From: Methanocella sp.
GTDB lineage: Archaea > Thermoproteota > Bathyarchaeia > Bathyarchaeales > Bathycorpusculaceae
Length of the DNA stretch: 10,674 nt
Assembly (NCBI GenBank): GCA_050261115.1
Contig: JBLNCY010000017.1
Coordinates: 1 to 10,674 of the forward strand
Reading direction: 5' to 3'
Shown piece by piece: positions 1-9,499 of the stretch (position 1 is the first letter of the stretch; the number at the start of each line of letters is the position of its first letter). A program made the translations under genes and the position numbers. Under the pieces are notes generated by a model. That model worked only from the letters and a program-made list of their open reading frames with translations, made no database searches and had not been told where the DNA came from.

Positions 1-1025
1 AATGCGCCTGAAGTAGGCGACAAGGCTGGCGGTGCTATTTCTATAATTGGAAACAATACGCAAAGGCAATGTCATAGGTGTCGCTGTGGGAATTACGGGT
101 TCTCGTTCTAATGTCGCGGAGAACACTCTTTTAGACGATGTTGGAGTGAACGGTTCTTACTCAACCATCTCAAAGAATGTTTTTTTCAGGAACTATCAGG
201 GCAAATGGCTCACACCTGAACATCTCCTCTAATACTAAAGATAGTTCAATTAAGATTGGTATGGATTCTGGAATCAAATTAGAAGGCGCATTTTGTACTA
301 TTTACGGAAATGTGATAACTGCTAAGAGGATGACTCCAGGGATAGGTGTTGACGGTAAAGATAATCTAGTGATAAAAAATATAGTAGAGAATTCAGATGT
401 AGGCATCAGAGTGAATGGCTCAAACAATTTCCTTTGCGCCAACATAATAAGTGACTGCATGATTTCCCCAGCGTACTCTTATACTATACCTACAAGCGGT
501 ATAGCTCTGCAAATTTCAGGGGACAATCTAGTATATGCGAACGACATCACCGACAACTCGTGGGGGATGAGTCTAAATCAATACTCAGAGATTGTTTCCA
601 TTTCTACTTTCTATCACAACAACTTTATTGGAAACACGTATCAGGTCGTTTTATTACCAGAAGAGTGGCTGATTGATTACACAAAAGATAGTTATGATAA
701 CGACAAGGAAGGTAACTTCTGGAGCGACTATAACGGCACTGACAGAAACGGCGACGGCATAGGCGACACCCCCTACATAATCGATGCCCGCCGTATGGAC
801 CGCTACCCCCTGATGGCACCTTATGATATAGATATCGCCACTATCGAGTTACCTTACTGGGCAAACCCAACCCCCTCCAGCACACCAGAACCCAAACATA
901 GCCCAACACTACTCCTCACCCTAACCATAGCCGCCACAACCGCCGCCGTGATCATAACAGCACTAATCATACACAGCAAAAGAACCCACCGCCGACCCAA
1001 CCCACAGAAAGCACCCCCAGCATAA
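1..1025 (+). pseudogene. NosD/pectin-lyase-like right-handed beta-helix surface protein with C-terminal Pro/Thr linker and TM anchor; 5'-truncated by the window, two apparent frameshifts (about 63 and about 180-186)
   Basis: Beta-helix-like sequence runs through three frames: frame 1 (1-63, NAPEVGDKAGGAISIIGNNTQ), frame 2 (65-181, GNVIGVAVGITGSRSNVAENTLLDDVGVNGSYSTISKNV) and frame 3 (ORF 177-1025). The C-terminal part has FYHNNF, GNFWSDYNGTDRNGDGIGDTPYIID...DRYPL, a PTPSSTPEP linker, a hydrophobic helix and a basic tail. The 282-aa frame-3 part is intact. The frameshifts could be sequencing errors. Confidence 0.75.
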
Positions 1026-1163
1026 ATCTAAAACTGACCCCTAGGCAAAGAGATCGGTTGATTAAAAGGTCAGGCAAAACAAAAAGGGCGCAGCTTCAAC
1101 CAAAACACTTCTGCAGCCAACCATCCGACTTGCCTGCAACCATACATCCCCTCACCGCCTAAA

Positions 1164-1211
1164 ACTAACAAACACCCAGACATACCCTCTACTTCCTGGC
1201 GGGTGTTTAGT
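1164..1211. other. Inverted repeat / hairpin immediately 5' of element copy 1
   Basis: AAACACCC (1170-1177) pairs with GGGTGTTT (1201-1208). Alternatively ACTA+AACACCC pairs with GGGTGTTTAGT (to 1211) with a 3-nt bulge. Confidence 0.55.
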
Positions 1212-1255
1212 CTATATATAAGAGAGGGGGTAGGTTAGCAAAGCACCAGAAACAT
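1211..1255. repeat. Dispersed intergenic element, copy 1 core (extended similarity about 1135-1272)
   Basis: 1211-1250 TCTATATATAAGAGAGGGGGTAGGTTAGCAAAGCACCAGA aligns ungapped to 8571-8610 at 33/40. CCAGAAACAT is also shared (1246-1255 vs 8615-8624). Confidence 0.8.
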
Positions 1256-1279
1256 ACCCTATCAAGCAGCCCTACGCAT

Positions 1280-1798
1280 TTACCAAGGGTGCTTTTTTAG
1301 TTTCAGCTTGTAAGCACCAAAATTAGTCAACAAGTGAATCGGCGGCGTCAAAATCAACACCGCAACCGCAACTTGCCAAGTCAACATGAACACGCCCAAC
1401 GCAACCAGCGGATAGGCAAACAGCAAGGCGCCGACAACGAAGTCAAGCTGATCTACCACCGGCAACATGCCGCCTGGCTGAATATCAAGCCGTCGCTTCA
1501 AAAAAGCAGCCGACAAATCGCCCAAAAGCGCTCCCAACGGAATTAACAAGCTAAACAGAAGTGGAAACTTGTCAAACCCAAAAACAAAGCCCTCCGCCAA
1601 TCCGACACCAAAACCCACCGTCCAGCCAAAGAAGAAACCCCGGAAGGTTTTGTTGTTGCCAAAGATGCGTTTGCCATCGGTAAAGTTTCGGCCAAAATCC
1701 ATCTTTTTTCCGCCGCCCGCAAGGACTGGTGTGCCGTTGGCGCAGTAGGCTGGAAAGATGAATTTTAGGGCTTCAACGATTAGGAGGACAAGATCCAT
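1280..1798 (-). CDS. carS: CDP-archaeol synthase (CDP-2,3-bis-O-geranylgeranyl-sn-glycerol synthase)
   Basis: Motifs PAYxANGxPV, D-G-x-RIFGxxKTxRG, GALLGDLxxxFLKRR and PVVDQLDF, ending KLKKHPW, with multiple TM helices. Start is ATG at 1798 or 1810. Confidence 0.93.
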   Translation of the reverse strand: MDLVLLIVEALKFIFPAYCANGTPVLAGGGKKMDFGRNFTDGKRIFGNNKTFRGFFFGWTVGFGVGLAEGFVFGFDKFPLLFSLLIPLGALLGDLSAAFLKRRLDIQPGGMLPVVDQLDFVVGALLFAYPLVALGVFMLTWQVAVAVLILTPPIHLLTNFGAYKLKLKKHPW

Positions 1799-1815
1799 CG
1801 GGCTGTGCATCCGTT

Positions 1816-2511
1816 CTAGTAGAGTTGTGTATCAGTTAATCCACCTACCCCTATATGTACATAGCATGTTGCTTGCGTTGCTTGGGTGGGGGCTTTTTCG
1901 ATTGATACCTGTATTACCTGCGGATAGTCTGTGGGCTTTAGACACAGGATGGTTTCTGCCCAGAACTTCAAGACCCGATTTGCAACCGGACGCACACTTA
2001 AGGACTCCGCCTCCTCACCTATTACGCTGCGCACTTGACTCAAAATCAGTAGCGGAATCTTTTTGGTTTTACAGAGCTGCGCAAGTATGGCGAGTTGTTT
2101 GTTTAGCTCTCGATTAACACTAAACGATCTAGGCAACTCTGCGGCCCGCGCGCTATAGAGCGAAGTAAACGTGTCAAACACCATAAGACCGACGTTAACG
2201 GTGTAGTCTTCGATTTTGTCGATGAGCACCGTTTGTTCCTTAAAATCCCGAGGCTTAACCAGCACCACACGCTCGGCCACCTCATCGAAGCGGTAATTTG
2301 CGATTTGGGCAAGACGCTCCGTTGAGAAAGTGTTGTCGCAGTCTACGTAGAGGATTTTTTGGCCTTGAACTGCACAGTTAACCGCACACTGCAACGCAAA
2401 GGTGGATTTACCGGTTTCAGGCTCCCCATAGACTAACATAATGGCGCCGGGTTGGATGCCTCCGCCGATTTTCTGGTCAATGCAACTAGATCCTGTGGGG
2501 ACGATTGCCAT
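1816..2511 (-). CDS. radB: RadB-like RecA/RadA paralogue (ATPase core only)
   Basis: Motifs PTGxxxID...GGG, Walker A GEPETGKST, YVDCD, FSTERLAQI, Walker B VFDTFTSLY, ELNKQL and LSQVRS. No N-terminal HhH domain. Start placed at ATG 2511 (MAIVPTG) because the upstream ORF extension runs through the divergent promoter region. Confidence 0.78.
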   Translation of the reverse strand: MAIVPTGSSCIDQKIGGGIQPGAIMLVYGEPETGKSTFALQCAVNCAVQGQKILYVDCDNTFSTERLAQIANYRFDEVAERVVLVKPRDFKEQTVLIDKIEDYTVNVGLMVFDTFTSLYSARAAELPRSFSVNRELNKQLAILAQLCKTKKIPLLILSQVRSVIGEEAESLSVRPVANRVLKFWAETILCLKPTDYPQVIQVSIEKAPTQATQATCYVHIGVGGLTDTQLY

Positions 2512-2586
2512 GGTTGACACGTCAAGCAATATTAGTTGGAAGATTAATAATTTGTTTTGCACTTAAACGTATACGATACTTCAAGG
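2512..2586. promoter_or_regulatory. Short divergent promoter region for radB-carS and the RNase H-fold/clp1 pair
   Basis: AT-rich gap between divergent starts. Minus-strand AAAACAAATTATTAAT (BRE/TATA-like, about 2543-2558) and plus-strand CTTAAA (about 2562-2567) lie about 25-40 nt upstream of the respective ATGs. Confidence 0.45.
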
Positions 2587-2592
2587 ATGGTT

Positions 2593-3240
2593 ATGAAGGG
2601 AAAAGTTGCCGTCGCAACAGTACAGGGTAAAGCCTACTATTACATAGTCAACGCTTTGCGTGAGTACGGCATTGGCTTCTTTAGCCTAATCCCCGGAGAA
2701 CCCATACCTTCAAGGGCAAAGTTGGTCATAACCACCGAAGAAGAAAAAGCCCAAGTCGCCTATCCCAAAGTCTTGGTTTTCCATGGTGAATCGGATCTTG
2801 ACACCCTAATTTTGGAAGTAAAGAAGGCGCTTTTGGGAAAGGAAGCCTACGAGAAGATTGTGGTGGGTATTGACCCCGGTGAAGCAATCGGTTTTGCAGT
2901 TATAGCAGACGGGAGAGTCATTGAGGAAAGCAACTGCTACACCAACCGCGAGGTAATAAGGGCTATTCTTAAAATTCTTAAGGCAGTGAACTTCTGTGTT
3001 ACTACCTTTTCGGTTAAAATCGGCAACGGTGTACCCCTCTATCGGGAGCTGCTCTATGACTTAGATGAGGCTTTGCCACATGAGGTGTCCCTGATAGTTG
3101 TAGGCGAAGCAGGAACCAATCGACCCCTCAGGGCGCATAGCCGAAAAGTTAGGCATATATCTTCCGCTATCCGTATAGCTGGAAGAACCGGGCGGTTATT
3201 GGCTAGGAGACATGTCGTTGCAGCACACAGTACAAACTAA
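2593..3240 (+). CDS. Conserved archaeal protein with C-terminal RNase H-fold (YqgF/RuvX-like) domain
   Basis: IVVGIDPGEAIGFAVIADG resembles the first strand of the RNase H fold with its catalytic Asp. Also KIGNG, VVGEAGT (cf. YqgF DERxT) and terminal RHISSAIRIA (cf. DxxAA). Start is ATG 2587 or 2593. Confidence 0.65.
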   Translation: MKGKVAVATVQGKAYYYIVNALREYGIGFFSLIPGEPIPSRAKLVITTEEEKAQVAYPKVLVFHGESDLDTLILEVKKALLGKEAYEKIVVGIDPGEAIGFAVIADGRVIEESNCYTNREVIRAILKILKAVNFCVTTFSVKIGNGVPLYRELLYDLDEALPHEVSLIVVGEAGTNRPLRAHSRKVRHISSAIRIAGRTGRLLARRHVVAAHSTN

Positions 3241-4312
3241 CAGAACCCTACTTGTGGACGGACCAGCAGCCATACAAGTCATCGCTGGAAAAGCAGAAGT
3301 CTTCGGCAAACCGCTCAAAGAACCCCAGCGGGTAATGGTTCACGAGGGCAAACGTAAACCCTTCTACGCCACCGAAACCCTCACGCTTAAGGTCCTCTTA
3401 GGCGCCAACGCAGCCATAAAAGAAGTGGAAGGCACCACAACGCCAGCGTCATGGGATAAACCGGTTGAATTTATACGCAGCCTCGAGCTTAAGCCCTTAA
3501 TAATCATACTCATGGGTGCCTCTGACGCTGGAAAAAGCAGCTTCTGCACCTACCTCCTAAACAAGCTCGTTGAAGGCAACCGTAGAGTGGGCATTTTGGA
3601 TGGCGACTTGGGCGAATCAGACATCGGACCCTCAGCCACCGTCGGCTACGCCGTAGCGGAAAAGCAAGTCACAGAATTAGGCAACCTAAAGATGCAAAAT
3701 GGGTTCTTCGTCGGCGCAACATCCCCCGTACACGCATTAAACAGGGCGGTTGAAGGCTTAGTCGCTATGCTACAAGAGCTACTCCAAAAGCAGCCAGACT
3801 ACGTGATAATTAACACGGATGGCTTCATAGCCGGCGAGGCTGCAGAAAAATACAAGCTGTCTCTCATAAGGGAGCTGAGGCCAAACATAGTTATCGGCAT
3901 CCAATCCAAAAACGAGTTGGACCCGATAATCTCCTGCCTTGGCGGAGGCGGCGTCATGACCGTTGAAGCATCACCAGCCGCAGGCACAAGAGGCCCAGAG
4001 AAACGCAAAGCCCTAAGAGAAAGAACCTACCAAAAACACCTCAAAAACTCAAAGCTCCAATGCATCCCCATCAGCCAATTAATAGTTGAACCCCGAACAG
4101 CCATCCCCAAAACGCAGGACCCAAACAAAGGGCTCCTAGTCGGCTTATATGGCTACGGCTCCAAATTCTTAGGCATCGGCGTCCTACGCGCCATTAATTC
4201 GACAAGAAAAACCTTGAAAATACAAACCTCCGTTCCCAAAAAGCCCATTCGACTTGTTTTAGGTAAGGTTATGCTCGATCGGAAGCTTCGGGAAGTCCCA
4301 AGTCAGGCTTGA
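3212..4312 (+). CDS. clp1: Clp1/Grc3-family polynucleotide 5'-hydroxyl kinase
   Basis: N-terminal LLVDGPAAI domain, Walker A GASDAGKSS, DGDLGESDIGP, FFVGATSP, INTDG and lid RKALRE. Overlaps the upstream gene by 29 nt. Confidence 0.88.
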   Translation: MSLQHTVQTNRTLLVDGPAAIQVIAGKAEVFGKPLKEPQRVMVHEGKRKPFYATETLTLKVLLGANAAIKEVEGTTTPASWDKPVEFIRSLELKPLIIILMGASDAGKSSFCTYLLNKLVEGNRRVGILDGDLGESDIGPSATVGYAVAEKQVTELGNLKMQNGFFVGATSPVHALNRAVEGLVAMLQELLQKQPDYVIINTDGFIAGEAAEKYKLSLIRELRPNIVIGIQSKNELDPIISCLGGGGVMTVEASPAAGTRGPEKRKALRERTYQKHLKNSKLQCIPISQLIVEPRTAIPKTQDPNKGLLVGLYGYGSKFLGIGVLRAINSTRKTLKIQTSVPKKPIRLVLGKVMLDRKLREVPSQA

Positions 4313-6279
4313 TTGCAGAAGAACTTGCGAACTTGCTCGGCTAAGGCGCCGGGTTTGTCAGGGATAGTTATCATGCCGTTAGTTACCCAGGAGGGTATGA
4401 AGCTCTTTACGTAAGCAGACGCATAGCGCTGGTCCAGAAAAACTATGGCGCCGCGATCGTCAAGTGTCCGTATGGGTCTACCGGCGGCTTGGCAAGCCTT
4501 CTTCATGGCCGGCAAGATATAGCCGTATTCACGGCCTCGACTGGGGAAACGGTCTTCGTAGTAGTCGATTTGGGCTCTAACCCGAGGCGTGGGCTCAGCG
4601 TAGGGGACACCCACGACGATGACGGAGTTCATTTGGTTACCAGGGAAATCTACCCCCTCCGAGGTTCGCCCACCCTGCACCCCCAAAAAGACTGCACCAC
4701 CTTTATCGCCGCATGCCTTGAAATTCTGCACCAGCTTCTCGTTATCTTTAGAACTCATACCACTCTTTTCATAGTAGAGGGGCTTTAGCAATTGGTCTTC
4801 GAGTCCTTCGGAGAGCAGCGCGTTTAGGACTTGGAAGCTGGCGGCGAAGATGCCTGTGTTGGTGGGGGTGCTGTTGACGACTTCGTTTATGCGATCAATC
4901 ATGGTCTGGTACATTTTGGGTGTCCGCTGCTCCATTGAGGTGGAGACGCCCATGCAGACCGCTGAGAAAACGTGCTCTTTAGGGAAAGGGGAAGGCGCTA
5001 AGAACCGCACCGTGGTTTCGGGTAGTTTAGTGATGCGTGCATAAGCTTCCAGCGGCTGCAGAGTTCCTGACATGATTACGTTGGCATAGGTCTGGGAGAA
5101 GACGGGCTCGGTTATTTTTGCGGGGTCTAAAGCGACGATTTCGAGTTTTGCTGCTTTATTGCCTTCTTTATTGATGTATTGGCTGGCGACGTTGATGTAT
5201 GAGTTATCGTTTACCGTGTCAAGCCATTTAGTTAAGAAATCGGCTGTGGCGTTAATGTAGCTTCGGGGGTTTTTGCCTTCAGCTAGCAGAGCTTTTTTTA
5301 TGGCAACGCCTGCCTCATGCATGTGAATAAAAAAATCACGGGGTCTATGGACTCCGCCTCTCTCAACTATTTCAAGAATGCGATCTGGCGATATCAGTTC
5401 TTCTTTTCGAATCTTGTCGGTTAACTTGTCGACTTCGTTGCGGAAAAAGTGAGCGAACTCTTCTATGTCTTTGTAACCAAATCGTTCTGCCTCCATTTCG
5501 GCTTGGCGCAGGATAAAGAGGGTAAGCTGAGAGCTAGAGATATCGACGGCGGTTTCGGGCAGATTATGGGCTTCGTCAACTACAAGAATAACTTTTGATA
5601 GCTCAGTCTCTAGGTTCTTAAGAAAAGCCGAGCGAATCTGAGAATCAAACACATAAAGATAGCTTAAGGCTATAACTCGGGCGTCATGAGTGGCCGCTTT
5701 CACAAGCTCATAGGGGCAAATCTCGGTTTTTTTGCATACCCGAAGGATTTCTGAGCCCATATAGGGTTTTATGGCGACTTGCGCAGAGAGCTGCAGGTAT
5801 TCATAGCTGCGGTTCTCCACGTTTTTGTAGTAGGGGCAGCGGCCTTTGGATTTGAGGAGTTCACAGACTTCCATCAGAGATTTCGAGTCAAATGCGCCCT
5901 TTTCGGCAAAGACGTTGAGGCACATTTCATTGCGTCCACGGATAGAGACGCCAGTCACTGGGCGCCGCTTGTAGATTGCCCGTAATTCGTCTATGACGCG
6001 GTCGTGTTGGCGATGTGTGCGTGCGACGTAGAGGATTTTGAGGTTCTTTTTCATTGCTACAGGAAGAACAGCGGACAACGACGAGATGGTTTTTCCTAAC
6101 CCATTAGCGCCTTCTATGAGGACGGATTTGCGTTCGTTTACGGCTTTGTTGACGGTGGTTATGAATTCGTCTTGGTGGGGGCGTGCGGCGCTATAGGGGA
6201 AGTATTCGAGCACCTCGGCGGGTAATTTGAGGTTGTTTATGGTGCTGTTGCTTGGGGCGCTGGGGGTTGTGTTGTTCAT
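4303..6279 (-). CDS. xpd: XPD/Rad3-family Fe-S cluster 5'-3' DNA helicase
   Basis: Q motif FPY..RPHQ, GANGLGKT, Fe-S Cys (NEMC, EVC, CPYY, CPYE), VDEAHN, SGT, SEGVDF and QAAGRPIR. Start ATG 6279 is preceded by AGGAGA and overlaps the nth stop (ATGA). Confidence 0.92.
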   Translation of the reverse strand: MNNTTPSAPSNSTINNLKLPAEVLEYFPYSAARPHQDEFITTVNKAVNERKSVLIEGANGLGKTISSLSAVLPVAMKKNLKILYVARTHRQHDRVIDELRAIYKRRPVTGVSIRGRNEMCLNVFAEKGAFDSKSLMEVCELLKSKGRCPYYKNVENRSYEYLQLSAQVAIKPYMGSEILRVCKKTEICPYELVKAATHDARVIALSYLYVFDSQIRSAFLKNLETELSKVILVVDEAHNLPETAVDISSSQLTLFILRQAEMEAERFGYKDIEEFAHFFRNEVDKLTDKIRKEELISPDRILEIVERGGVHRPRDFFIHMHEAGVAIKKALLAEGKNPRSYINATADFLTKWLDTVNDNSYINVASQYINKEGNKAAKLEIVALDPAKITEPVFSQTYANVIMSGTLQPLEAYARITKLPETTVRFLAPSPFPKEHVFSAVCMGVSTSMEQRTPKMYQTMIDRINEVVNSTPTNTGIFAASFQVLNALLSEGLEDQLLKPLYYEKSGMSSKDNEKLVQNFKACGDKGGAVFLGVQGGRTSEGVDFPGNQMNSVIVVGVPYAEPTPRVRAQIDYYEDRFPSRGREYGYILPAMKKACQAAGRPIRTLDDRGAIVFLDQRYASAYVKSFIPSWVTNGMITIPDKPGALAEQVRKFFCNQA

Positions 6280-6941
6280 GTGGTTGTCTCCTTGGATGGG
6301 CAGACGCTGCTTACAGGGCAGGCGTGGCATTTGGGGTTTTGGGCTTTGCAGGTTTTTCTGCCATGCGCAATCAGCAACAGGTGCACATAAGTGTAATCTT
6401 GGGGTTGGAAGAGCGATTGGAGACTTAACCGAACCGCTTCATAATCCCCTTTCTGGGGAGCTAACCCAAGCCGCCTTGCGACACGGTTAACATGCGTATC
6501 TACTGGGATGGTCGGTTTGCCCGCTGAGAACATTAAAACGACATCGGCAGTTTTGGGCCCAACACCCGGCATCTCCATGAGGGTTCTGCGCGCAACCTCC
6601 AGGGGCAATGCGAGAATCGCGTTCAGGTTGCCGCCGAATTTCTCAAGAACAATCCTAGAGACAGTCTGGATCGCTTTGGCTTTGCTTTGATACAGCCCAG
6701 CGGCGCGTATGCAGTCTTCTATTTCCTCAATTTTAGCCTCAGCCAGCACCGATGGAGTAATCGCGAATAGCTTTGAGAGTTTTTCAAAGGCGCGTTCTGT
6801 GTTGGTGTCGGCGGTGTTCTGAGAAATAATTGTCACAATCAGCGTTTGGTAGGGGTCGGCGCCAACTTTGACGAGGTCTGGCAGGGCTAGCGTTTCCTTT
6901 AGGGTGATGAGAATGGTTTGTGCGTTAGCTTGAGTCTGCAT
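6276..6941 (-). CDS. nth: Endonuclease III (HhH-GPD DNA glycosylase/AP lyase with 4Fe-4S cluster)
   Basis: Motifs ISQNT, HhH MPGVGPKTA (catalytic Lys), PVDTHV and C-x6-C-x2-C-x5-C (CKAQNPKCHACPVSSVC). Start probably ATG 6941. Confidence 0.93.
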   Translation of the reverse strand: MQTQANAQTILITLKETLALPDLVKVGADPYQTLIVTIISQNTADTNTERAFEKLSKLFAITPSVLAEAKIEEIEDCIRAAGLYQSKAKAIQTVSRIVLEKFGGNLNAILALPLEVARRTLMEMPGVGPKTADVVLMFSAGKPTIPVDTHVNRVARRLGLAPQKGDYEAVRLSLQSLFQPQDYTYVHLLLIAHGRKTCKAQNPKCHACPVSSVCPSKETTT

Positions 6942-6980
6942 AGCGTTACTTCTGCCTAAGAATGTTGAGAGTATGCTTCT

Positions 6981-6999
6981 ATTGGCTATAAATACCAAT
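6981..6999 (-). promoter_or_regulatory. Putative TATA box for nth-xpd, flanked by an inverted repeat
   Basis: ATTGG-CTATAAATA-CCAAT. Reads TTTATA on the minus strand (6987-6992), about 46-51 nt upstream of the nth ATG. Confidence 0.45.
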
Positions 7000-7144: not shown

Positions 7145-8359
7145 ATGCAGAAAATAACAAAGCTGTTTTTTGCAGTTTTCGTCTGTTCACTGATAATTTT
7201 GTCATTCTCTCAATTCCCCACCTCATCCTCTGAATTGATGACATTTGAGGAACAAGCCTTAGCCTATATCAACAAGGTTTTACCGCTTGACATGACCCAG
7301 TACAATGTCACCTACTGTAGAGTCGGATGGCTACCCCCAGGGTACCAGGACACGCGAGTATGGAACACCACTTCAGTTTACCTCCAAGCCCCCAACAGCT
7401 CAGTTAGTGTAGGCTTCATATTCGTCAATGGGATAATGCGGCAATGCGGTATCTGTTATCTGTCGGGGACTCCATTGATGGAGCCAGGGTACAGCGGCAC
7501 TGGAGCCGTCATAGAGATACTAACGCGGCACAGCGAAATGGTCGGAATGGATTCCCAACAACTCATAAACGCACTCTCAAACGGAAAGAGCGAGGGTGTT
7601 TCCTTGAAAATTGACGAAAGACCTATGTATAATATGGAAATAGTAGACGACAGGCTTGAAGAAAAAGAGTATCTTGGTCTCACCACGAGCTATATTTGGA
7701 CAATAACTGTTGACGCCGTAGGCTACAATAGACTTGTGATGAGTTTTAAAAACGGTTACCTCAGTAACATAGAAGACGATCGCCCCTGTTACCCAATCGG
7801 CGGAACCAACATCGACATATCAAAAGAACAAGCCATAGAGATTGCCAAAGAATACGTCAGCAACTACACCAGCAACTTTAACCTAACCATAACCCAACAT
7901 GCAGCCTCAATCGGCAGCTTCCTACGCAACAGCGAAAAACTCTACCCCTGCTGGATGGTAGATTTACGTTTCAACCTAAACGTCAATGATGTCTCTGTGT
8001 ATCTTTGGGCTGACACTGGAGAAGTGTTCTGGTGCTATCAAGGCGGAAGCCCCCTCAACCAAAGCGAACTCAAACTACTATCAGCACCCAAATTCTCCCA
8101 ATCCTTTGACGTCCCTACCCCAGCGCCAACACAACAGGCAAACGTGGGCTCTTCGCAGCCGCAAGCCACCGACAAGCCAGTTGAACCACAGACCTCCACC
8201 CCAACACCTGACTACCGAACAGGCAACGAAGCATCTGCCCAGACGGATACACCTATGCAGAGTACAGATTCCCAAAGCAGGTCAATATTGGCTTATTCTG
8301 TGGCAGTTTTAATTGGGATAGCGGTCTTTGGTTCAATCGCAGTTATCCGTAGGCTATAG
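7145..8359 (+). CDS. Secreted, C-terminally membrane-anchored surface protein with PepSY-like domain
   Basis: N-terminal signal peptide (MQKITKLFFAVFVCSLIILSFS), PepSY-like pattern ISKEQAIEIAKEY...PCWMVDL...VYLWADTGEV, P/T/Q/S-rich linker, TM helix ILAYSVAVLIGIAVFGSIAVI and RRL tail. Confidence 0.8.
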   Translation: MQKITKLFFAVFVCSLIILSFSQFPTSSSELMTFEEQALAYINKVLPLDMTQYNVTYCRVGWLPPGYQDTRVWNTTSVYLQAPNSSVSVGFIFVNGIMRQCGICYLSGTPLMEPGYSGTGAVIEILTRHSEMVGMDSQQLINALSNGKSEGVSLKIDERPMYNMEIVDDRLEEKEYLGLTTSYIWTITVDAVGYNRLVMSFKNGYLSNIEDDRPCYPIGGTNIDISKEQAIEIAKEYVSNYTSNFNLTITQHAASIGSFLRNSEKLYPCWMVDLRFNLNVNDVSVYLWADTGEVFWCYQGGSPLNQSELKLLSAPKFSQSFDVPTPAPTQQANVGSSQPQATDKPVEPQTSTPTPDYRTGNEASAQTDTPMQSTDSQSRSILAYSVAVLIGIAVFGSIAVIRRL

Positions 8360-8570
8360 TCTAAAAATCGGCGAAAACCTAACAGATCCTGCCCCACTTG
8401 TGGGAAAGATGCAACCGGTTGTAGCCTCACCTAGACGCAAATGCTAAAACAGATTTCTGCCAAGCTCATTAAATTCCCACATAATAACACCCACTTGTTT
8501 GCCACTTTAGCAAGTCTCCCAAAGAGGAGTTTCAGCAGTTTCTTAAGCGTAGGTTCAACCCATGGTTGAC

Positions 8571-8624
8571 TCTATGTATAAGGGAGGGGGTCTATCAGCA
8601 AAGCAACAGACCCCCCAGAAACAT
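8571..8624. repeat. Dispersed intergenic element, copy 2 core (extended similarity about 8410-8634)
   Basis: TCTATGTATAAGGGAGGGGGTCTATCAGCAAAGCAACAGA matches 1211-1250 at 33/40. Contains the stem GGGGGTCT (8586-8593)/AGACCCCC (8608-8615) and is preceded by the hairpin TCAACC-CAT-GGTTGA (8555-8569). Confidence 0.8.
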
Positions 8625-8660
8625 CCAAGAGCCCAGCTAATAGCTATACAATAAGTGCAA

Positions 8661-8677
8661 GACAGCAAAAGAAGGGG
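8661..8677 (-). terminator. Possible archaeal pyrimidine/oligo-T terminator for purL-purQ
   Basis: The minus strand reads CCCCTTCTTTTGCTGTC directly after the purQ TAA. Confidence 0.35.
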
Positions 8678-9499
8678 TTAGTGGGCGGTTTTGGTGAGGT
8701 TGTCTATGATGCTTTGGAAAATCAATTTACCATCACCATACCGGCTTATCTTTGAGTCGCGTGTCCATGTGGGCTGCTGCCACCAGTACATCGCCCGCTC
8801 AGGATGAGGCATCAAGCCAAAAATGCTACCCTCAGGATTACATATGCCTGCGATGTCATAGAAGCTGCCGTTAGGGTTATCGGGGTATTTACCTTCTGCT
8901 GCGGTGCCGTCTTTGCTGCAGTAGCGGAAAACCAGCATGTCTTGGTCGATTAGTTTCCTAAGTATCGCCTCTTCTTTTTCTTTGGGGAATAGCAGTCGGC
9001 CTTCGCCATGCGCGATGGGTAACTGGATGGTTTTGCCGGCTGGGATAGCGCTGGTGAAGACGCAGTTGCTGCGGTTTTCCTGCTTTAGATAAACCCATTT
9101 ACATTTGAATCCCGCAGGCTCGTTTGTGGTAAGGGCAGCTTGGGGGTACTCGCTGATTCCATCAAAACCGGGCAGCAATCCGTATTCGACGAGAATCTGG
9201 AAGCCGTTACATATGCCCAGTATTGGTCTGCCCTCATCGACGAATTGTGCGATTTCCTTGCCCAGATGCGCAGAGAGGTGGCGTGCAAAGATAACGCCGC
9301 TACGTACATAGTCACCGTAACTAAAGCCGCCGGGGAAAACCAGCACATCGTAGTCTAGCAGGTTGCGTTGTTTTATCATGTCGCTGACGTGGACGACTTC
9401 GGCTTGTGCGCCTAATTCGGTGAATGCCCGCTGGGTTTCGGCATCACAGTTTGTTCCGCCAACTCGGAGTACACAGACTTTGATGTCTTGGGGTTTCAT
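8678..9499 (-). CDS. purQ: Phosphoribosylformylglycinamidine synthase glutaminase subunit
   Basis: Motifs GTNCD, PGGFSYGD, catalytic GICNGFQ, PIAHGEG, NPNGS and MPHPER. Has a GGAGG ribosome-binding site and an ATGA overlap with the purL stop. Confidence 0.96.
   Translation of the reverse strand: MKPQDIKVCVLRVGGTNCDAETQRAFTELGAQAEVVHVSDMIKQRNLLDYDVLVFPGGFSYGDYVRSGVIFARHLSAHLGKEIAQFVDEGRPILGICNGFQILVEYGLLPGFDGISEYPQAALTTNEPAGFKCKWVYLKQENRSNCVFTSAIPAGKTIQLPIAHGEGRLLFPKEKEEAILRKLIDQDMLVFRYCSKDGTAAEGKYPDNPNGSFYDIAGICNPEGSIFGLMPHPERAMYWWQQPTWTRDSKISRYGDGKLIFQSIIDNLTKTAH

Follow-up and report, generated by a model that had tools for sequence, protein, structure and literature searches.

A genome-wide family of modular intergenic repeats with a TATA-like core in a member of the Bathyarchaeia

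What kind of element are two similar stretches of non-coding DNA that lie behind two different genes of one archaeal contig, each pointing into the 3′ end of the next gene? The contig (C17; JBLNCY010000017.1 of assembly GCA_050261115.1, deposited as Methanocella sp. and placed by GTDB in the Bathycorpusculaceae, class Bathyarchaeia) was analysed over its whole length of 10,674 nt, referred to here as the window. It belongs to a 2.15-Mb genome (G000; 66 contigs, 47% G+C, 95% complete) for which a crude map of 2029 open reading frames (ORFs; 85% coding) was available. One stretch (copy 1) points into the 3′ end of carS, 30 nt off, and the other (copy 2) into that of purQ, 68 nt off; an original prediction, made from the letters of the window, had read them as a dispersed element tied to accessory surface-protein genes. 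The two stretches are members of one modular intergenic repeat family that occurs genome-wide in about 86-108 copies, and its core may be promoter-like.

The match between the two copies is real. The original prediction had reported a 40-nt ungapped core with 33 identities (1211-1250 versus 8571-8610), and our own count agrees; a repeat search extends the match to 46 nt (1205-1250 versus 8565-8610, 80%, 37/46) and has it as the top entry of its list of direct repeats. Further copies, which a dispersed element should have, were found in number: a hidden Markov model (HMM) of the two window copies, run against G000 with nhmmer, gave 108 matches at E ≤ 1, 86 at E ≤ 0.05 (the main copy set used below), 56 at E ≤ 1e-3 and 28 at E ≤ 1e-5. 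A 20-mer from the core had 61 matches with at most two mismatches in the same genome, against 0 for its reversed control, and together these counts place the core match far beyond chance. A search of the window against Rfam at E ≤ 1 returned 0 matches, in keeping with the expectation that the element belongs to no described family.

Alignment of the copies separates a constant part from several variable ones. The aligned copies have ...TCTATATATAAGGGAGGGGGT in common, then a 5-7-nt spacer and then GGCARAGCAACAGA, and are divergent beyond. The near-invariant block is TATATATAA followed by GGGAGGGGG, that is, a TATA-like box and a run of G (the G-run); this block and the terminal box after the spacer are identical in about 80-99% of aligned copies, and 5′ modules, spacer and flanks are far less conserved. 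The spacer takes few, discrete states (AGGTC, CCCTC, CTCTC, CTATC and others). Two alternative modules are found on the 5′ side. Type A, about 30 nt long, follows the pattern TTCAAG-nnn-AGGTTSAACC-nnn-GGTTGAC, which is matched by 41 of the 86 copies and includes window copy 2. Type B is CA-rich and about 115-130 nt long; a profile built from 21 other copies, with the window excluded, has 36 matches in G000 at E ≤ 0.01 and includes window copy 1, where a AAACAGGCG-like 5′ flank motif stretches the module to about 1075. Unit size accordingly ranges from 75 to 180 nt. Complementary arms like those around the terminal box of copy 2 (Table 1) can be seen by eye in some other copies, where they are similar but shorter. 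The copy on contig C22 (about 33660-33710) is a near-perfect palindrome, with G-run and terminal box on both sides of a central TATATATA.

This anatomy also sorts the smaller blocks that had been proposed as parts of the element. Three collinear blocks upstream of the core (TGCAACC-N8-CCTCACC at 8410-8431 in copy 2, CTAAAAC and AACACCCA) fall inside the type-B module in copy 1. They could not be upheld for copy 2, which has a type-A module at about 8540-8572 and in which the type-B profile finds no match within 8360-8570 even at E ≤ 10; given a type-A module and no type-B match, 8410-8539 is without support as part of the element. The downstream blocks (CCAGAAACAT and CAAG(C)AGCCC) survive in part. 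A family-wide 3′ tail was not found, flank comparison giving only 12-15-nt matches at chance level, but the tail of copy 2 is common to a few copies as far as about +80: by flank BLAST, C17:8565 resembles C57:42785 (77% over −14 to +80) and C57:90752 (75% over −19 to +66). The motif TCTAAAA does follow both stop codons (1026-1033 and 8360-8366), as had been noticed, and is rare genome-wide, lying within 12 nt of the stop in 3 of 1993 ORFs (about 1.2 expected).

Table 1. Features of the window; positions are counted from its first letter.
Feature	Position	Strand	Basis or remark
Copy 1, type-B 5′ module, CA-rich, about 115-130 nt	1075..1204	+	type-B profile match 1101-1207, E 1e-14; alignment of 22 type-B copies
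Copy 1, TATA-like box TATATATAA	1213..1221	+	near-invariant column block across family
Copy 1, G-run GAGAGGGGGT (family consensus GGGAGGGGGT)	1222..1231	+	
Copy 1, variable spacer AGGTT	1232..1236	+	
Copy 1, terminal box AGCAAAGCACCAGA (consensus GGCARAGCAACAGA)	1237..1250	+	about 25 nt after TATA box, where a start site is predicted
Copy 2, type-A 5′ module: TTCTTAAG, then dyad GGTTCAACC-CAT-GGTTGAC (8552-8570)	8540..8572	+	
Copy 2, TATA-like box TATGTATAA	8573..8581	+	
Copy 2, G-run GGGAGGGGGT	8582..8591	+	
Copy 2, variable spacer CTATC	8592..8596	+	
Copy 2, terminal box AGCAAAGCAACAGA	8597..8610	+	
Copy 2, 8-bp complementary arms GGGGGTCT (8586-8593) and AGACCCCC (8608-8615) around terminal box	8586..8615		read by eye
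Copy 2, tail common to only a few copies	8611..8634	+	flank BLAST
Strain-variable segment: C-terminal part of gene and whole gap	838..1279	.	DNA run X5 contig versus window; only 1201-1235 core identical
NosD-type beta-helix surface-protein gene, 3′ part, C-terminal anchor	177..1025	+	Pfam NosD 5.6e-13; C-terminal hydrophobic segment by Kyte-Doolittle scan
carS (CDP-archaeol synthase)	1280..1810	-	Pfam CarS-like 1.1e-40
Between carS and endonuclease III: RadB/Rad51-like gene, weak DUF460 match, clp1, XPD-type helicase			Pfam/ORF list
Endonuclease III (nth)	6276..6998	-	
Gene without Pfam family, N- and C-terminal hydrophobic segments, upstream of copy 2	7145..8359	+	
purQ	8678..9499	-	Pfam GATase_5 1.1e-69; purL adjoins in window gene list

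The copies are largely confined to gaps between genes, 76 of the 86 lying outside the crude ORFs, and they take no preferred direction relative to those genes. Among the 81 copies that could be classified (the other 5 are at contig ends), 24 are convergent, 16 divergent, 18 tandem co-oriented and 23 tandem anti-oriented, which is near random. A co-oriented gene follows downstream in 34 of the 86 copies. Neither window copy has a gene downstream to transcribe, each facing the 3′ end of a convergent gene.

The core also extends well beyond this genome. In a first draw of 41 genomes, searched with the 20-mer (at most two mismatches), there were 61 matches in G000, 2 in G007, 1 in G002 and 0 in all others, and the reversed control gave 0. 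A wider draw covered 401 genomes of the class and used an 18-mer of TATA-like box plus G-run with at most one mismatch. It was present in 17 of them, with 0 throughout for the reversed control, and the richest were G064 (same genus) with 62 matches, G000 with 52, G216 with 20, G349 and G426 (each of another genus) with 18 and 12, G406 with 8 and G412 with 5. G000 aside, 15 of the genomes with the 18-mer belong to the same family, of which 103 were searched, and 1 comes from the rest of the class, about 297 genomes. The element can therefore not be called lineage-specific in the sense of one species, since several genera of the family have multiple copies of its core. In G349 and G426 a RAGAGCA(C/A)AACAG-like box lies after the G-run, at the same distance of 9-12 nt. 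Most copies in G064 and G216 have the form CTTTATATAAGGGAGGGGAGGT-n6-TGAGACGTCGCGTG, and many of them go on with some 90 nt of further conserved sequence; upstream of the TATA box there is no conservation. A different conserved block, about 100 nt long, here has TATA box plus G-run at its 5′ edge and starts at GAGACGTCGCGTG, where the start site is predicted. Most of the 62 core matches in G064 are of this CTTTATATAA type and a minority have the GGCAGAGCAAC box of G000. Judging from these alignments, the unit that crosses genus boundaries is TATA box, G-run and a box at start-site distance, and the modules beside it are interchangeable.

The repeat unit of these two congeners is an observation in its own right. 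In G064 (loci L040, L041, L047, L048 and others) and G216 (L065-L083), TATA box plus G-run head a unit of about 125 nt that runs, in order, GAGACGTCGCGTG, TTCCAGC, a GNRA-capped stem CGGATACG-GNRA-CGTATGCG and CTAAAT..TATAGAAAAAATCGCA, with an A-rich end. It has no Rfam match: a search of 15 G064 loci returned only an end of large-subunit rRNA and one sub-threshold snoRNA match, neither of them at the repeat.

Some copies occupy the same place in two species. The ORFs flanking 30 copies of G064 were compared with their best matches in G000; 40 genes at 26 loci had one, and 13 of the 40 had a G000 copy within 1.2 kb. For 9 of the 40 (at 8 loci) the copy lies on the same side and within about 400 nt, and 5 of these also have the same orientation. 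The expectation is about 1.7, by our rough estimate that a copy lies within this distance of some 4% of gene ends, for a Poisson p of about 7e-5. The neighbours of shared copies are psmA, the S8e gene, purE, fumarase, carB, two glycosyltransferases, a LysR-type regulator and a DUF116 gene. At two loci (L028/C43 and L031/C51) the orthologous convergent gene end can be aligned directly after the core and the remaining gap cannot. Such shared positions may be either old copies that were homogenised within each genome or the outcome of repeated insertion into the same gaps. The upstream regions of psmA (G000 C57 67150-67290 versus L055) and of the S8e gene (C35 15480-15560 versus L049) were found to hold a TATA-like box and leaders of about 75 and about 45 nt that are almost identical between the species, the genes being otherwise about 70-80% identical in DNA; these leaders are strongly constrained.

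What might such a core do? The chances are about even, as far as its letters can tell, that the element is a modular promoter-like intergenic cassette whose core reads toward the side of the G-run. TBP and TFB would assemble on the TATA box, and RNA polymerase would start in the terminal box (a position taken from archaeal promoter geometry), with the 5′ module behind it. Each window copy would then be the source of a short + strand transcript that runs antisense into the 3′ end of its convergent neighbour, carS or purQ; alternatively, both would be silent passengers. The family would have been spread, or kept uniform, by duplication, recombination or gene conversion and not by classical cut-and-paste transposition. 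Two lines of evidence point this way. First, an invariant TATA-like box, a fixed spacing and a block that survives across genera with its flanks swapped favour a promoter-like core. Second, conservation in G064 starts at the TATA box and runs downstream, which favours a core that reads toward the G-run. Also on this side are the palindromic copy on C22, the positions conserved in part between G000 and G064, and RNA-library reads that cover the junction of carS and the element.

A number of observations weigh against a promoter. There is no A-rich B recognition element (BRE) on either side of the core, which has GGTTGACTC or GCTGAGTC upstream and CCCCCTCCC on the other strand (the tRNA genes of G000 have RAAAG and TTTAWAT upstream), and the G-run occupies the region where promoters normally melt. 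Convergent gaps hold 24 of the 81 classifiable copies, where gap length predicts about 15.5, and divergent gaps hold 16 instead of about 25, a placement unlike that of working mRNA promoters. The cassette is flipped at 3 of the 8 positionally shared loci. Where it lies upstream of psmA and the S8e gene, both genes have a nearly identical proximal TATA-like box and leader in G000 and G064, and the cassette sits 100-170 nt farther upstream, each species with its own cassette type; the separate proximal box and leader imply that the cassette is not the proximal promoter of either gene. Finally, an RNA-library contig from run X15 covers carS (1280-1617) and continues 47 nt past the stop codon into the terminal box of a strain variant, about 17 nt upstream of the predicted start, so it fits a carS 3′ untranslated region, read-through or DNA equally well.

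Three narrower versions of a promoter function were tried and rejected. The element is not the ordinary mRNA promoter of a downstream gene, given its random orientation and the nearer conserved TATA box and leader that psmA and the S8e gene have of their own. It is not a tRNA promoter, as no copy resembles the tRNA upstream regions of G000. Nor do cassette-rich genomes have an extra TFB paralogue to go with it: G000 has 3 TFB genes, G064, G216 and G349 have 2 each and G426 has 2-3, five genomes with 0-1 copies of the 18-mer have 4, 3, 3, 2 and 4, and these counts are without link to copy number.

A rival reading is a selfish non-autonomous repeat of the miniature inverted-repeat transposable element (MITE), REP or PATE kind. 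The core would then be the recognition site of a mobilising enzyme or recombination system, its likeness to a TATA box would be incidental, and copies would gather at the sites that tolerate them best. In agreement with this, some 86 copies lie between genes with no fixed orientation; further points in favour are a convergent excess and a divergent deficit of the sort usual for tolerated repeats, subfamilies with modular 5′ and 3′ parts, a patchy copy number among congeners (by 20-mer, 61 in G000 versus 0-2 in 24 congeners; by 18-mer, 62 in G064) and the absence of any element core at 11 carS loci and 9 purQ loci in relatives. However, the traces that transposition tends to leave were not found where they were sought. 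The flanks of 31 type-B copies show no target duplication, the mean longest shared word being 3.7 versus 3.4 in randomly paired 16-nt flanks. The ends are not terminal inverted repeats, since by eye the consensus runs from TTCAAG... to ...CAACAGA in type A and from ATTTCTATC... to ...CAACAGA in type B. No partner transposase lies beside any copy in G000, although at 95% completeness this is an assembly of the kind that often loses insertion sequence (IS) copies: the Y1 transposase family PF01797 has 0 matches (control matches in 6 of 14 reference genomes), DDE_3 (PF13358) has 0, the TnpB-type zinc ribbon (PF07282) has none above the Pfam cut-off, and DDE_Tnp_1 (PF01609) and rve (PF00665) have 1 each, away from the copies. 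Flank BLAST in G000 found no longer parent element. Moreover, different genera retain the core, and with it the distance to the terminal box, in surroundings that change, and some copies hold their position between species, which fits selection on the core better than neutral decay. Taken together, a purely selfish repeat seems rather unlikely.

The element could also be a signal that acts in the reverse direction. Read as CUGUUGCUUUGCC-n5-CCCCCUCCCUUAUAUAUAG, it might be a 3′-end, termination or insulator element, or a site for a chromatin or regulatory protein, and 48 of the 86 copies do face the 3′ end of the downstream gene (median distance about 55 nt, about 15 copies within 20 nt), both window copies among them at their 30 and 68 nt. 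The two copies kept between G000 and G064 at L028 and L031 are convergent, the X15 contig reads from carS into the terminal box, and copy 2 has an 8-bp GC-rich stem around that box followed by a pyrimidine/AT-rich stretch on the minus strand. Against these points, 47 copies facing a 3′ end versus 34 facing a 5′ end is not a significant difference (binomial estimate, p about 0.18), the element has no run of five or more T, and T-runs begin no sooner downstream of it than downstream of random sites; the stem is without demonstrable presence across the family, and no consensus fold was found. We consider a signal of this sort distinctly unlikely. A defined small RNA ending at a T-run was rejected as well, because the distance to the first T4/T5 run does not differ from that at random sites.

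A structured non-coding RNA family, which the original prediction had offered as one possibility, or a small-protein gene is very improbable. There are hints of pairing, in the type-A dyad, in a partial complementarity of CAGCAAAC with GTTGCTG in type B and in the GNRA-capped hairpin of the G064 module. Yet RNAalifold found no consensus on 22 type-B copies on either strand and single-sequence folds differ between copies, the stem in G064 is invariant and so offers no covariation, and neither the window (E ≤ 1) nor the repeat units in 15 G064 loci matched Rfam. As for a protein, copies of type B do not keep the ATG on the minus strand and often differ by 1-nt indels, which leaves no ORF.

The view that the element marks an accessory surface-protein cassette, or is a recombination end that moves or swaps such genes, can be judged on the whole copy set. 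A C-terminal anchor is found in 7 of 46 co-oriented upstream genes against a background of 92 of 2029 ORFs (odds ratio 4.0, p 0.004), and in 5 of 44 when the two window copies that gave rise to the hypothesis are left out (odds ratio 2.9, p 0.043), so that a link to surface-protein genes exists but is weak. The other 39 of the 46 upstream genes are of other kinds, the neighbours include housekeeping genes such as those named above for the shared copies (psmA, the S8e gene, purE, fumarase, carB, glycosyltransferases), and over all 166 flanking genes there is no enrichment of anchored proteins. Two other circumstances speak for the idea: a strain that differs over the C-terminal part of the NosD-type gene and the gap behind it, with flanks about 99% identical, and breaks of synteny in both gaps. 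The variable segment ends at the carS stop codon, outside the core, however, and copy 2 is unchanged in both DNA runs examined (X5 and X9). The genome-wide census largely refutes a surface-protein cassette, and we would be very surprised if it were correct. For a recombination or insertion end in a more general sense, the support is circumstantial, consisting of the strain-variable segment and the synteny breaks.

The strain comparison itself draws on near-identical DNA from 12 runs in 5 studies of digester, compost and biofilm metagenomes. The dominant strain of run X5 has 28 other letters in 808-973, has 974-1200 swapped for 208 other letters, is identical over 1201-1235, and differs by many changes and indels over 1236-1279; over the whole piece 1201-5767, its contig has 32 other letters and 8 gaps in 4559 letters. 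The window form of 838-1279 occurs in run X9 and in a minor X5 contig. From its letters, 838-1279 looks like an imported or converted segment that spans the C-terminal tail and the gap. RNA-library contigs, which give neither strand nor transcript ends, add that reads firmly span the junction of carS and the element, in the X15 contig described above; we infer that the repeat would interrupt a k=31 assembly at about the point where this contig ends. Another contig covers 902-1139. The listed RNA-library contigs leave both window-form cores uncovered, with near-zero cover over 8189-8900, which says nothing about expression.

Gene order changes at both gaps. In 6 relatives carS is followed, after a gap of 19-122 nt, by the orthologue of G000 C53:17465-17887, and in 4 relatives the neighbours of purQ differ. 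In the comparison with relatives, which had been suggested, both gaps are breaks of synteny, and the 20 carS and purQ loci have no core beside them. Both window ends of the carS-radB-DUF460-clp1 block are rearrangement points. The block itself is kept in the relatives that were fetched (L002-L007), with nth on the same contig in several and purQL elsewhere. At the left end of the window, positions 1-121 are identical to the end of contig C43 (41926-42433), which encodes the N-terminus, with signal peptide, of a NosD-type protein. It follows that the assembly has split a longer surface-protein gene, of which the ORF at 177-1025 is no more than the 3′ part. Within the XPD-type helicase gene, the main contigs of both DNA runs (X5, X9) have a 15-nt deletion at window position 6232, in the N-terminal part, accompanied by several linked substitutions at 6255-6438.

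A bolder synthesis is tentative and on the whole somewhat unlikely. It would see here a BRE-less class of archaeal promoter (TATA box, G-run and fixed initiator box) that has long been kept across several genera of Bathyarchaeia and was copied to about 100 intergenic sites without inverted ends or target duplications, where it would mostly fire non-coding or antisense transcripts into gene 3′ ends; modules would be exchanged around a palindromic TATA core that is also a recombination joint, as 838-1279 hints. Either outcome would matter for a lineage of uncultured archaea with a wide occurrence in anaerobic digesters. Should the core be active, about 100 extra start sites, many antisense to gene 3′ ends, would shape expression, and the BRE-less design of TATA box plus G-run would be a testable variant of archaeal promoter recognition. 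If it is inactive, the family is a clean case of a repeat spreading without inverted ends, target duplications or visible transposase. In both cases, annotation pipelines should treat the element as a genome-wide repeat and not as a marker of surface-protein cassettes.

How does the family compare with known systems? Some of the small intergenic repeats, a group that includes MITEs, REP/BIME, Correia, BOX and RUP elements, carry promoters, for example Correia elements. The present family resembles MITE-, REP- and Correia-type repeats in its size of 75-180 nt, its tens to hundreds of intergenic copies, its modular build, its patchy occurrence in close relatives and its preference for gene 3′ ends. 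It differs from MITEs in that no terminal inverted repeats, target-site duplication or partner transposase were found and in that its core is conserved across genera, and from IS200/IS605-derived PATE or REP-RAYT elements in that G000 has no match to the Y1 transposase family. Of the subterminal hairpins that such elements have at both ends, the candidates here are the dyad at the 5′ end of type A and variable short stems round the terminal box, which are unlike each other and show no covariation. On the defining features that were examined, it is neither a MITE nor an IS200/IS605 derivative. With the canonical archaeal promoter (BRE, TATA box and initiator) it shares a TATA-like octamer and a conserved box at start-site distance, and it departs from it in having no A-rich BRE, TATATATA instead of TTTAWAT and a G-run in the melting region. 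Our search of the literature on Bathyarchaeia found no description of such intergenic repeats.

Closer parallels may lie among repeats that are promoters themselves. Work on putative mobile promoters and promoter reuse in prokaryotes reports groups of highly similar promoters at unrelated loci within and between genomes (PMC3575422). The groups of that survey are reported to be defined upstream of genes, whereas many copies here have no gene to drive and the unit includes non-promoter modules. The halovirus HF2 has class I and class II intergenic repeats of 58 and 29 bp with AT-rich TATA-like motifs; 9/9 of those tested had promoter activity, long counter-transcripts were seen, and both sequence and position are conserved among related genomes (Russ, Pfeiffer and Dyall-Smith 2021, PMC8707807). 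As there described, they are like the present element in being a short repeated intergenic archaeal sequence with a TATA-like motif and, in part, a conserved position. They differ in that they belong to a virus genome and stand ahead of gene blocks, whereas the element here is chromosomal, has about 90 copies in either orientation, often between convergent genes, and has two alternative 5′ modules, a G-run and a predicted promoter role. What this analysis adds is the pair of 5′ module types, the cross-genus distribution, the exchange of modules seen in G064 and G216, positions that are conserved in part, a segment that varies between strains and a link test with surface-protein genes that came out negative.

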